Assembly (NCBI RefSeq): GCF_057098645.1
Contig: NZ_CM169472.1
Strand: one strand, 5' to 3'
Length of the DNA: 64,000 nucleotides
Below, in pieces: positions 12,001 to 15,000 of this stretch (the stretch's first letter is position 1; the number at the start of each line of letters is the position of its first letter). The position numbers are program-made.

Positions 12001-15000
12001 CACGGCATCCGTCTGGGCTTTATGTCCTTCTACGTGAAAGCGGTGGTTGAAGCCCTGAAACGTTACCCGGAAGTGAATGCTTCTATCGACGGCGATGACG
12101 TGGTTTACCACAACTATTTCGACGTCAGCATGGCGGTTTCTACGCCGCGCGGCCTGGTGACGCCGGTTCTGCGTGATGTCGATACCCTCGGCATGGCAGA
12201 CATCGAGAAGAAAATCAAAGAGCTGGCAGTCAAAGGCCGTGATGGCAAGCTGACGGTTGAAGATCTGACCGGTGGTAACTTCACCATCACCAACGGTGGT
12301 GTGTTCGGTTCCCTGATGTCTACGCCGATCATCAACCCGCCGCAGAGCGCAATTCTGGGTATGCACGCTATCAAAGATCGTCCGATGGCGGTGAATGGTC
12401 AGGTTGAGATCCTGCCGATGATGTACCTGGCGCTGTCCTACGATCACCGTCTGATCGATGGTCGCGAATCCGTGGGCTTCCTGGTAACAATCAAAGAGTT
12501 GCTGGAAGATCCGACGCGTCTGCTGCTGGACGTGTAGTAGTTTAAGTTTCACCTGCACTGTAGACCGACGTGGATAGGGTGTCGGTCTACGGTTTAAAAG
12601 ATAACGATTACTGAAGGATGGACAGAACACATGAACTTACATGAATATCAGGCAAAACAACTGTTTGCCCGCTATGGCTTACCAGCACCGGTGGGTTATG
12701 CCTGTACTACTCCGCGCGAAGCAGAAGAAGCCGCTTCAAAAATCGGTGCCGGTCCGTGGGTAGTGAAATGTCAGGTTCACGCTGGTGGCCGCGGTAAAGC
12801 GGGCGGTGTGAAAGTTGTAAACAGCAAAGAAGACATCCGTGCTTTTGCAGAAAACTGGCTGGGCAAGCGTCTGGTAACGTATCAAACAGATGCCAATGGC
12901 CAACCGGTTAACCAGATTCTGGTTGAAGCGGCGACCGATATCGCTAAAGAGCTGTATCTCGGTGCCGTTGTAGACCGTAGTTCACGTCGCGTGGTCTTTA
13001 TGGCCTCCACCGAAGGCGGCGTGGAAATCGAAAAAGTGGCGGAAGAAACTCCGCACCTGATCCATAAAGTTGCGCTTGATCCGTTGACTGGCCCGATGCC
13101 GTATCAGGGACGCGAGCTGGCGTTCAAACTGGGTCTGGAAGGTAAACTGGTTCAGCAGTTCACCAAAATCTTCATGGGCCTGGCGACCATTTTCCTGGAG
13201 CGCGACCTGGCGCTGATCGAAATCAACCCGCTGGTCATCACCAAACAGGGCGATCTGATTTGCCTCGACGGCAAACTGGGCGCTGATGGCAACGCCCTGT
13301 TCCGCCAGCCTGATCTGCGCGAAATGCGTGACCAATCGCAGGAAGATCCGCGTGAAGCACAGGCTGCACAGTGGGAACTGAACTACGTTGCGCTGGACGG
13401 TAACATCGGTTGTATGGTTAACGGCGCAGGTCTGGCGATGGGTACGATGGACATCGTTAAACTGCACGGCGGCGAACCGGCTAACTTCCTGGACGTTGGC
13501 GGCGGCGCAACCAAAGAACGTGTAACCGAAGCGTTCAAAATCATTCTCTCTGACGACAAAGTGAAAGCCGTTCTGGTTAACATCTTCGGCGGTATCGTTC
13601 GTTGCGACCTGATCGCTGACGGTATCATCGGCGCGGTAGCGGAAGTGGGTGTTAACGTACCGGTCGTGGTACGTCTGGAAGGTAACAACGCCGAACTCGG
13701 CGCGAAGAAACTGGCTGACAGCGGCCTGAATATTATTGCAGCAAAAGGTCTGACGGATGCAGCTCAGCAAGTTGTTGCCGCAGTGGAGGGGAAATAATGT
13801 CCATTTTAATTGATAAAAACACCAAGGTTATCTGCCAGGGCTTTACTGGTAGCCAGGGGACTTTCCACTCAGAACAGGCTATTGCATACGGCACTAAAAT
13901 GGTTGGCGGCGTAACCCCAGGTAAAGGCGGCACCACCCACCTCGGCCTGCCGGTGTTCAACACCGTGCGTGAAGCTGTTGCTGCTACTGGCGCTACCGCT
14001 TCTGTTATCTACGTACCAGCACCGTTCTGCAAAGACTCCATTCTGGAAGCCATCGATGCAGGCATCAAACTGATTATCACCATCACTGAAGGCATCCCGA
14101 CGCTGGATATGTTGACCGTGAAAGTGAAACTGGACGAAGCAGGCGTTCGTATGATCGGCCCGAACTGCCCAGGCGTTATCACCCCGGGTGAATGCAAAAT
14201 CGGTATCCAGCCGGGTCACATTCACAAACCGGGTAAAGTGGGTATCGTTTCCCGTTCCGGTACACTGACCTATGAAGCGGTTAAACAGACCACGGATTAC
14301 GGTTTCGGTCAGTCGACCTGTGTCGGTATCGGCGGTGACCCGATCCCTGGCTCTAACTTTATCGACATTCTCGAAATGTTCGAAAAAGATCCGCAGACCG
14401 AAGCGATCGTGATGATCGGTGAGATCGGCGGTAGCGCTGAAGAAGAAGCAGCTGCGTACATCAAAGAGCACGTTACCAAGCCAGTTGTGGGTTACATCGC
14501 TGGTGTGACTGCGCCGAAAGGCAAACGTATGGGCCACGCGGGTGCCATCATTGCCGGTGGGAAAGGGACTGCGGATGAGAAATTCGCTGCTCTGGAAGCC
14601 GCAGGCGTGAAAACCGTTCGCAGCCTGGCGGATATCGGTGAAGCACTGAAAACTGTTCTGAAATAAATATCTGTAATAAGAAATAGCCCTCGCCGCTTCC
14701 CTCTACAGGAATGGCGAAGGGCTGTCGGTTTCGACATGGTTGGCCATCGTATGATGGCCTTTTTTATGCCTTAAACGGTTAACCACGGTCGAAATCTGAC
14801 TGCAGGCTTGACTGCATGACCACAGCCACTGTGGATTGCCGCAACCGACCGCAAGCCACGAATAAGAACGACGGCGAATTTCGAATCGTTACCTGATGCA
14901 CTGGCTTCCCAGCGTTTGACCGTAGCGTTAAGTAAATCAACAAAAGCGATGTTCACCGCTTTTCGTCAAGTCGTGCCATTTGTCAGCCAGGATCGGGTCT

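Follow-up and report, generated by a model that had tools for sequence, protein, structure and literature searches.

The sucB-sucC stem-loop of Escherichia coli is the REP-free allele of a REP/BIME-variable intercistronic site

Introduction

Among the closest described counterparts of the element analysed here are stable hairpins that lie past the promoter-proximal cistron of an operon, have no U-tract, and are believed to make the mRNA segment upstream of them more stable. One is the intercistronic REP stabiliser of malE-malF, which was reportedly described by Newbury, Higgins, and co-workers in 1987. The SMAG elements of Stenotrophomonas are another, and their effect is altered by copy number; the review that covers them also describes how REPs affect mRNA stability (PMC3184786).

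Canonical REPs (y, z1, and z2), the elements on which the TnpA-REP (RAYT) transposase acts, are characterized by many dispersed copies, an unpaired GTAG 5′ of the palindrome foot, an imperfect stem (with a mismatch or bulge), and a y/z consensus body. For TnpA-REP to bind and cleave, GTAG must lie 5′ of the stem foot and the stem must contain a mismatch, and neither activity survives when the palindrome is perfect; BIME copy number varies between strains (PMC3333891). The REP between sucB and sucC of E. coli K-12 gives rise to an mRNA decay intermediate that is stabilised by the REP and builds up in rhlB pcnB mutants, according to a study (PMC4372235) whose reference list includes Khemici & Carpousis 2004. 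The 5′ end of the adjoining sucC gene is a target of the sRNA Spot 42 (PMC6393394), and GcvB pairs around position −8 of sucC (PMC9299463).

Results

The window that we analysed, a stretch of 64,000 nucleotides, is E. coli DNA with 100% identity to O145 RM9872. The two genes, the spacer, and the parts of the spacer described below are on its plus strand. The gene for the E2 subunit of 2-oxoglutarate dehydrogenase, sucB, is a 405 amino acid ORF (11320..12537, stop codon TAG at 12535-12537) that is annotated as odhB under 100%-identical E. coli genome matches to the sucB region. The beta-subunit gene of succinyl-CoA synthetase, annotated as sucC, is a 388 amino acid ORF (12631..13797). The ORF limits leave a spacer of 93 nt (12538..12630), hereafter the short allele.

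A hairpin begins 20 nt past the sucB stop. The preliminary description of this DNA reported a perfect 10-bp inverted repeat at 12560-12590 between the two genes, and both its coordinates and its arms are exact: the 5′ arm GTAGACCGAC (12560..12569) and the 3′ arm GTCGGTCTAC (12581..12590) are perfectly complementary, with an 11-nt loop between them. With a repeat finder, each arm reaches 13 nt (12557-12569 and 12581-12593), and the longer stem includes one T.G. In the minimum-energy RNA fold, the full stem-loop (12557..12593) has 15 pairs, including three G.U, and a 7-nt loop; taken alone it folds to −20.9 kcal/mol, and the 10-bp core to −15.7 kcal/mol. The same description stated that no T-run follows the stem, which is borne out by the DNA sequence 3′ of it (GGTTTAAAAG) and by a terminator scan that did not call the hairpin. 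A stem of the kind found in Rho-independent terminators is present, but the tail GGUUUAAAAG does not provide the immediate U-tract. The scan gave a weak terminator-like match at 12520-12540, overlapping the sucB stop, which is probably due to chance. No promoter was called between 12000 and 13200, including at the hairpin, and a permissive Rfam scan of 11000-15500 (E<=10) found no match overlapping the spacer.

The hairpin is more stable than shuffled sequence. The most stable 45-nt segment of the spacer has a folding energy of −21.5 kcal/mol, and shuffles of dinucleotide type fold to −10.5 +/- 1.8 kcal/mol (z about −6), although a coarser scanning step was used for the shuffles than for native sequences, a slight bias in favor of the latter. 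Over the entire 93-nt spacer the excess is smaller (z = −2.2), and 6 of 200 shuffles fold equally well. Perfect inverted repeats of at least 10 bp with loops of 3-20 nt occur at nine loci in the window. These loci comprise 23 overlapping seeds, where 100 first-order Markov simulations gave 1.5 on average. Hairpins of this kind therefore form a real class that is enriched in the window, and the sucB-sucC hairpin is one member.

Complete E. coli genomes carry this spacer in several forms. Of 5,426 genomes, 3,399-3,402 have the short allele, with one copy in each, and 1,991 have a long, K-12-type allele, in which REP/BIME sequence replaces the central 14 nt. The spacers fall into length classes of 89/93, 185, 261, 274/275, and 365 nt, and a long allele contains one to three REP/BIME units. 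The 93-nt spacer is also found in Nissle 1917, O157:H7, UTI89, E2348/69, and others; the long form is carried by K-12, B-type and other strains, E. coli AVS0096, and E. albertii.

Every allele is bounded by GTAGACCG...TCGGTCTAC, with identical flanks. The first 8 nt of the 5′ arm, GTAGACCG, open the first REP in every long allele, and TCGGTCTAC in the 3′ arm (12582-12590) closes the last, degenerate inverted REP. Between them, the central 14 nt ACGTGGATAGGGTG (12568..12581), which form the loop and the innermost stem pairs, are swapped for 106-286 nt of REP/BIME sequence in other strains. These comparisons exclude a location of the long alleles elsewhere than the hairpin. Every E. coli allele, and E. 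albertii as well, keeps the outer helix GUAGACCG/CGGUCUAC, whose predicted pair probability is about 1.0 in all five alleles tested. The hairpin is thus the minimal form, free of REPs, of a site that varies in REP/BIME content: other strains have REP units of varying number between the same flanks, and the hairpin's arms are the shared outer helix (ACUGUAGACCG / CGGUCUACGGU). The preliminary description was right that the stem-loop is real; it missed that the site is polymorphic for REP/BIME, that this is the allele without them, and that the arms form the outer helix round the repeats.

A plain insertion or deletion does not relate the short to the long form: compared with the long alleles, the central 14 nt show no similarity above chance, and we rejected this relation. 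We also rejected the idea that the hairpin itself is a dispersed repeat. The K-12 insert is one, at a median of eight places per genome, whereas the short hairpin occupies a single place in each of 3,402 genomes (45-nt query, blastn, word size 11, E<=10, a search that copies below about 85% identity would escape).

Like canonical REPs, the hairpin has GTAG followed by (A/G)CCG and a G+C-rich palindrome, and it is extragenic within an operon. Unlike them, it lacks dispersed copies, its GTAG (12560-12563) is paired with CTAC (12587-12590), its 10-bp core is perfect, with only T.G in the extension, and in place of a y/z consensus body only GTAG(A)CCG and CGG(T)CTAC recall REP ends. With the K-12 REP/BIME cluster it shares locus, flanks, and the outer helix GTAGACCG...CGGTCTAC, but it differs in being a single-copy, perfect palindrome with GTAG inside the stem, no REP body, and an unrelated 14-nt centre. 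Its predicted energy of −20.9 kcal/mol matches or exceeds that of the single K-12 REPs at the locus (−8.7 to −21.4 kcal/mol). Canonical REP signatures are found elsewhere in the window, at 8207-8324, 44095-44129, and 63084-63191.

In structure the hairpin is what a barrier to 3′-exonucleases would need, a stable stem-loop (−20.9 kcal/mol) in a transcribed spacer past a cistron. In the literature that we searched, a decay intermediate for this site is described for the K-12 REP allele only (PMC4372235). RNase III sites typically span roughly two helical turns (about 20 bp), more than the 15 pairs, including three G.U, of this stem. The composite helices predicted for the long alleles are much longer.

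Among sampled short alleles, the variants G12573A, T12580G, and a 4-nt deletion in strain HS-02 are all inside the central 14 nt, and the three keep the energy at −20.9 to −22.5 kcal/mol. Nine further contigs differ from the window at 5-16 of 607 nt in sucB and at 6-20 of 1,167 nt in sucC and have no change in the stem. With three independent loop variants, the invariance of the stem is statistically weak (about P = 0.03). The 660 contigs read with the exact SucC protein are E. coli-type only.

We predict a local hairpin in each of 40 Enterobacterales sucB-sucC spacers, at −13 to −32 kcal/mol. Each is more stable than the mean of its own shuffles, under the same slight bias toward native sequences, with two species showing no excess stability (z = −0.6 and −0.2). 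The hairpins were scored species by species, because MAFFT cannot bring the divergent 3′ arms into register. Their sequences are unrelated, and a T-run follows one of the 40. As to conservation, which the preliminary description gave as a check, these Enterobacterales spacers keep a strong hairpin but not its sequence. The comparison drew on 80 sucB-sucC loci, with E. fergusonii, cryptic Escherichia clades, and Salmonella not among them.

Eight genera align at the 5′ side as CACCTG, 4 nt, a GTAG-like tetranucleotide, and (A/G)CCGG, so that they have a REP-like 5′ end in common at the same position. The CACCTG motif 5′ of the hairpin (12550..12555 in the window) corresponds to invariant alignment columns C13-G18 in the eight genera. 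The arms of Citrobacter FP75 differ from those of E. coli by four both-sided changes, and those of Enterobacter BIGb0383 by four both-sided changes and one broken pair. Such changes need not mean selection on RNA, because palindromic repeats stay palindromic through their mode of copying.

The 3′ part of the spacer, TTTAAAAGATAACGATTACTGAAGGATGGACAGAACAC (12594..12630), has the same sequence in every E. coli allele and in E. albertii and is largely kept across genera. Both the Shine-Dalgarno region of sucC (12614-12622) and the region where sRNAs pair lie in it. In a contiguous-run scan of the spacer, 12611-12622 is complementary over 12 nt to nt 23-34 of Spot 42, with a predicted duplex energy of −14.6 kcal/mol. 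Unpaired probabilities of the Shine-Dalgarno region and the AUG are predicted to be identical for the 93-nt and 274-nt alleles. We considered an anti-Shine-Dalgarno role, in which CACCUG would pair with the sucC Shine-Dalgarno sequence and be freed by ribosomes terminating on sucB. This is unsupported, as the pair probability summed over every combination is only 0.45 and equal in short and long alleles.

Discussion

We lean, by a little, toward the explanation that this REP-free allele acts as a solo REP-like hairpin, which would block 3′-exonucleases and insulate the ribosome-binding and sRNA-binding region of sucC. In the same explanation, the hairpin descends from, or takes the place of, a REP-like element (a GTAG-type tetranucleotide and then a G+C-rich palindrome) that follows CACCTG at this position in several enterobacterial genera. 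Most likely, it would work as an ordinary protector of upstream RNA.

On the sdhCDAB-sucABCD transcript, the stem-loop (−21 kcal/mol, no U-tract) would let RNA polymerase read through into sucCD, which is required because the spacer offers no promoter-like site for sucCD. By analogy with the K-12 REP allele, it would then stall 3′-to-5′ exonucleases (PNPase, RNase II) that enter after downstream endonucleolytic cleavage or premature termination. If so, the upstream sucAB RNA would outlive the sucCD part, the same role as that of a REP stabiliser. The sucC ribosome-binding and sRNA-pairing region (Spot 42, GcvB) would keep its predicted accessibility whatever the insert, because the helix closes on itself. 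One argument against this explanation is that E. coli lineages live with zero, one, two, or three BIME units, so that the exact structure is probably not critical and is perhaps nearly neutral. The proposal of the preliminary description that the hairpin modulates the stability or expression of sucAB versus sucCD fits the K-12 REP decay intermediate (PMC4372235) and the non-terminator-type hairpins of all 40 spacers, and for the short allele it is a function that we infer. Compared with the malE-malF and SMAG stabilisers, which rest on direct experiment, the sucB-sucC hairpin is known here from sequence and predicted folds; the effect of SMAG copy number is paralleled by the series of zero to three units at this site.

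The hairpin may instead be a neutral scar of REP/BIME turnover, a remnant or precursor that is palindromic only since REP pairs are inverted and that has no role in sucAB or sucCD expression. This would account for a site that is hypervariable within one species (five length classes), in line with the known variation of BIME copy number among strains (PMC3333891), and for arms whose positions are those of the first REP's outer end and the outer end of the last, inverted one. The long form in E. albertii and E. coli AVS0096 means that the short form could be derived. However, the central 14 nt occur in no long allele, so the hairpin is no simple excision product; strong spacer hairpins occur in 40 of 40 species across the order, some of them from lineages that have no recognisable REPs of E. 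coli type; and stems are constant and loops variable in every sample taken from about 3,400 genomes. We consider a neutral scar unlikely, while giving it appreciable weight. RNA processing with 5′-protection, the first half of which the preliminary description also proposed, would have RNase E cut the AU-rich flanks, or RNase III cut the stem, parting sucAB from sucCD, with the hairpin then shielding the 5′ end of sucCD. Three R-N-W-U-U RNase E-type matches do lie beside the stem, two of them upstream (both AG|UUU) and the third at the 3′ foot (GG|UUU), but about 1.4 are expected by chance in 93 nt, so the three are not significant. The stem, with 15 pairs and three G.U, falls below the RNase III norm, and our literature search yielded no mapped cleavage at the hairpin, which makes processing distinctly improbable.

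A leaky intrinsic terminator or attenuator, which would cut sucCD transcription relative to sucAB, could draw on the G+C-rich stem followed by GGUUU, and partial internal terminators do exist in the same operon, but between sdhB and sucA (PMC4161252). Like Rho-independent terminators, the hairpin is a G+C-rich stem-loop at a gene end; unlike them, it has no U-tract, and transcription must enter sucCD. Only three U follow the stem before a run of A, the terminator scan gave no call, a T-run follows only one of 40 orthologous hairpins, and read-through is needed in a spacer that has no promoter-like site for sucCD. Termination here is very improbable. An extra docking or decoy site for Spot 42 in the hairpin loop would make use of 12572-12583 (GGAUAGGGUGUC), which pairs over 12 nt with nt 18-29 of the sRNA and resembles GGAUAGAACAUC, a motif that in most other Enterobacterales stands ahead of the sucC AUG. 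None of 1,000 shuffles contained two runs of at least 12 nt (one run in 2.4%), but this is a post hoc finding. With G.U at five of its 12 pairs, the duplex reaches just −8.6 kcal/mol (−6.5 for the loop alone) versus −14.6 kcal/mol at the Shine-Dalgarno site. Natural strains also show variation in the loop or its deletion, and no long-allele strain has it; a decoy is hardly credible.

Taken alone, an exonuclease-blocking, REP-like hairpin matters little, as it adds to the intercistronic hairpins of REP-stabiliser type another case from an operon that is well studied. Two points are of use. Nearly all work on sucB-sucC, on the sRNA regulation of sucC, and on REP decay intermediates comes from K-12, whose allele is the minority one (in about 37% of complete genomes), and even within that class another length is commoner than its 274 nt. 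The 93-nt hairpin form is the one in O157:H7, UPEC, Nissle, and the majority of other E. coli. The zero to three BIME units between identical flanks are a natural experiment on REP copy number in a polycistronic mRNA.

A more speculative and rather improbable reading is that the outer helix is a structural socket, within which BIME units (zero to three) vary without disturbing the region of sucC for ribosome binding and sRNA pairing. Copy number would tune the survival of sucAB over sucCD, and the zero-unit loop may weakly mimic the sucC initiation motif for Spot 42. If this were true, a natural allelic series would set how much 2-oxoglutarate dehydrogenase there is relative to succinyl-CoA synthetase in different phylogroups.

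The polarity of the two forms has a pointer in each direction. Citrobacter FP75 has a spacer of 92 nt with GTAG...CTAC arms, which points to an ancient short form, and an orthologous REP cluster is also found in E. albertii, which points to an ancient long form.

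A known REP site in its REP-free form

The hairpin between sucB and sucC is the REP-free allele of an already known REP site, which the preliminary description overlooked. The sucB gene (annotated odhB) ends with a TAG stop codon at 12535-12537 on the plus strand, based on its ORF and the annotation of matching records, and the sucC ORF starts at 12631 on the same strand, leaving a spacer of 93 nt. The hairpin arms GTAGACCGAC (12560-12569) and GTCGGTCTAC (12581-12590) are perfectly complementary, with an 11-nt loop and no T-run on the 3′ side; the location, the perfect 10-bp inverted repeat, and the missing T-run are all exactly as first described. 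A repeat finder extends the inverted repeat to 12557-12593 with one T.G pair. Folded alone as RNA, the element is predicted to form 15 pairs with a 7-nt loop (-20.9 kcal/mol). Against shuffled sequences, the stability of the best 45-nt segment in the spacer is higher by about 6 sd, and the full 93-nt spacer has a z of only -2.2. Perfect inverted repeats of at least 10 bp occur at 9 loci in the 64-kb window, where composition predicts far fewer.

Across this region the window matches E. coli O145 RM9872 and O157:H7 strains at 100% identity, and spacer length varies among complete E. coli genomes, all 5,426 of which were searched. A 60-nt probe centered on the hairpin is found in 3,399 and a 45-nt low-stringency probe in 3,402, once per genome in each case; at least 80% of the length of the K-12 spacer is covered in 1,991 genomes. 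Side by side, the spacer alleles are 93 (89 in strain HS-02), 185, 261, 274/275 (K-12), and 365 nt. All are the same through ...CACCTGCACTGTAGACCG and again beginning at TCGGTCTACGGTTTAAAAG...; in the long alleles, 106-286 nt of alternately oriented REP take the place of the 14 nt ACGTGGATAGGGTG found at 12568-12581 in the window. The first unit, GTAGACCGGATAAGGC...CCGGCA, is followed by 1-3 units of GCCTGATGCGACGC...GTCTTATCAGGCCTAC plus GTAGGTCGGATAAGGCG...CATCCGAC, and the cluster closes with the first REP again, inverted and degenerate, ...TTCGGTCTAC. These inserts are dispersed repeats (median of 8 places per genome) and the hairpin is not dispersed. Tandem BIME unit number at one locus differs among E. 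coli strains (PMC3333891), and the hairpin corresponds to the minimal allele of such a polymorphic locus.

The outer helix GUAGACCG/CGGUCUAC has a predicted pair probability of 1.0 in the 93, 185, 261, 274, and 365-nt alleles. It is common to all five, so on these predicted folds the window hairpin is this helix at its smallest, and in the other alleles the same helix surrounds all of the repeats. The 93-nt and 274-nt alleles give the same numbers for the predicted accessibility of the sucC start codon and Shine-Dalgarno region. K-12 is not representative at this spacer, and the alleles form a natural copy-number series, of modest value, for testing REP effects on the operon mRNA.

Relation to REPs and other known elements

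The hairpin is single-copy and perfectly palindromic, pairs its GTAG inside the stem, and has no consensus body, which rules it out as a canonical REP. TnpA-REP, the REP transposase, works only where the 5′ GTAG is unpaired and the stem has a mismatch (PMC3333891). Zero matches to the hairpin in Rfam rule out membership of a family there, and a terminator scan ruled out an intrinsic terminator. That scan did return a weak stem of 7 pairs (G-T allowed) at 12520-12540, overlapping the sucB stop, with TTTAAGTTTC after it; chance within coding sequence is the probable explanation.

The sdhB-sucA spacer of the same strain has canonical REPs (8207-8324), with GTAGGCCTGATAAG at 8207 and 8296 and CTTATCCGGCCTAC at 8270-8283, so the strain is not REP-poor; it is just the sucB-sucC site that lacks them. 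At 8347-8385 the sdhB-sucA spacer also has a distinct perfect palindrome rich in A+T, CTTTAAAAACTG...CAGTTTTTAAAG. Further canonical REP/BIME signatures are at 44055-44129 and 63084-63191, with the inverted pair GTAGGTCG...CGACCTAC at 63084-63142. A second GTAG...CTAC perfect palindrome with 14-bp arms, GTAGATGCCTGAAT-AGAG-ATTCAGGCATCTAC, is found at 19970-20001, between the minus-strand ORFs 18644-19945 and 20399-21769. It resembles the sucB-sucC hairpin in pairing GTAG with CTAC but is unrelated in sequence, and is possibly a further REP-like element, collapsed or solo.

Conservation and age

We compared the spacers of 38 Enterobacterales species and two E. coli alleles. A strong local hairpin (-13 to -32 kcal/mol) is present in every spacer, and the sequences are unrelated from genus to genus. 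All exceed their own shuffle mean in stability, typically by about 3 sd, although two species have no real excess and the coarser scanning step used for the shuffles gives the native spacers a slight advantage. Only Rosenbergiella has a T-run after the hairpin. Eight genera align on CACCTG, then 4 bases, then a tetranucleotide resembling GTAG, then (A/G)CCGG; this is how a REP-type element begins at its 5′ end, and its position is fixed. The E. coli stem differs from that of Citrobacter sp. FP75 by four both-sided and two wobble changes with zero broken pairs, and against Enterobacter sp. BIGb0383 four changes are both-sided and one pair is broken; since REP-type elements are copied as palindromes, both-sided changes alone do not prove selection on RNA structure.

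Similar short direct repeats flank the hairpin, most clearly in Enterobacter sp. BIGb0383 (AACGATTATCACCTG ... GGATTACCTG). The E. coli pair is TTTCACCTG (12546-12555) and GATAACGATTAC-TG (12600-12612), and the left flank of two other compared loci (L012 and L018), ATAACGAACACCTG, is similar to the right flank in E. coli and Citrobacter. These repeats resemble the trace of an old insertion in which a palindrome duplicated its target. Such a duplication is not an expected outcome of REP/RAYT mobility.

The central 14 nt of the short allele resemble the long alleles no more than expected by chance, so the two forms are not related by a clean insertion or deletion. The E. albertii spacer has an orthologous REP cluster of 261 nt. 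The river isolate E. coli AVS0096 (NZ_CP076344.1) has a 261-nt spacer that is nearly that of E. albertii NBRC 107761, with the same partly deleted REP, and its SucB and SucC proteins are common E. coli types. The AVS0096 spacer is either an ancestral polymorphism or the result of inter-species recombination confined to the spacer; the long form is therefore older than the species split or was moved by recombination. Citrobacter sp. FP75 (92-nt spacer) has a GTAG...CTAC hairpin at this position, and that of Enterobacter sp. BIGb0383 is TCAG...CTGA, which argues that the short solo palindrome may be old too.

Possible role of the hairpin

The stem-loop at this site is stable, conserved, and not a terminator, and its allele in K-12 is a REP cluster that has been shown to persist as a decay intermediate. 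PMC4372235 describes this persistence, and Khemici & Carpousis 2004 on REP-stabilisers is among its references. REPs influence mRNA stability, and the direction of effect of GTAG-type SMAG elements depends on copy number (PMC3184786). The experimental work cited was all on strains other than those with the short allele, and the hairpin has the structural half of what defines a stabiliser. By analogy, we infer that it may stall PNPase and RNase II arriving from downstream, and the sucAB-containing segment would thereby outlive the sucCD segment. The hairpin would permit read-through into sucCD, which is required because a promoter scan found nothing promoter-like near it, and its self-contained fold would leave the downstream regulatory region undisturbed. 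The earlier suggestion that it modulates sucAB versus sucCD expression or stability, or is an RNase processing determinant, is reasonable but unproven. The internal partial terminator of the operon lies between sdhB and sucA. That terminator is drawn as making one operon work as two (PMC4161252).

The hairpin could instead be a neutral scar left by BIME turnover. Three short-allele variants were sampled (T12580G, which is common, G12573A, and a 4-nt deletion); all are in the loop, with folding energies of -20.9 to -22.5 kcal/mol. In nine more contigs, 5-16 of 607 sucB positions and 6-20 of 1,167 sucC positions are unlike the window, the spacer has 0-2 changes, and the stem is unchanged; given the few independent events, this constancy is only suggestive of constraint. 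Other readings are an RNase processing or 5′-protection element, a leaky terminator, here one lacking a T-run, and a decoy for the sRNA Spot 42 within the loop. The decoy would use a wobble-rich 12-nt match at 12572-12583; a run that long occurs in 2.4% of shuffles and two such runs in none, but the match is energetically weak and the loop is variable or absent in natural strains.

sRNAs and other features

GcvB represses sucC by pairing at the translation-initiation region, based on a sucB-sucC intraoperonic fusion and a C-8G compensatory mutant (PMC9299463). Spot 42 also represses sucC (PMC6393394), and 12611-12622 is complementary to its nt 23-34 over 12 nt (-14.6 kcal/mol). In most Enterobacterales (loci L020-L043, last ~15 nt before the sucC ATG), the sequence directly 5′ of the start is (T)GGATAGAACATC, which is perfectly complementary to Spot 42 nt 18-29 over 11-12 nt; the E. 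coli sequence at that position is GGACAGAACAC. In the short allele, the loop (12572-12583) has GGATAGGGTGTC, four transitions from the general motif that all still pair via G.U.

The sucD 3′ UTR is the source of the sRNA SdhX (RybD) (PMC6393394). At 14667-14840 it matches no Rfam family, the sole hit being a meaningless weak tmRNA (14724-14836, E = 8.4). Seven plus-strand tRNA genes at 38210-39011 (Lys-Val-Lys-Val-Lys-Lys-Lys, anticodons UUU and UAC) are the counterpart of the E. coli lysT-valT-lysW region.
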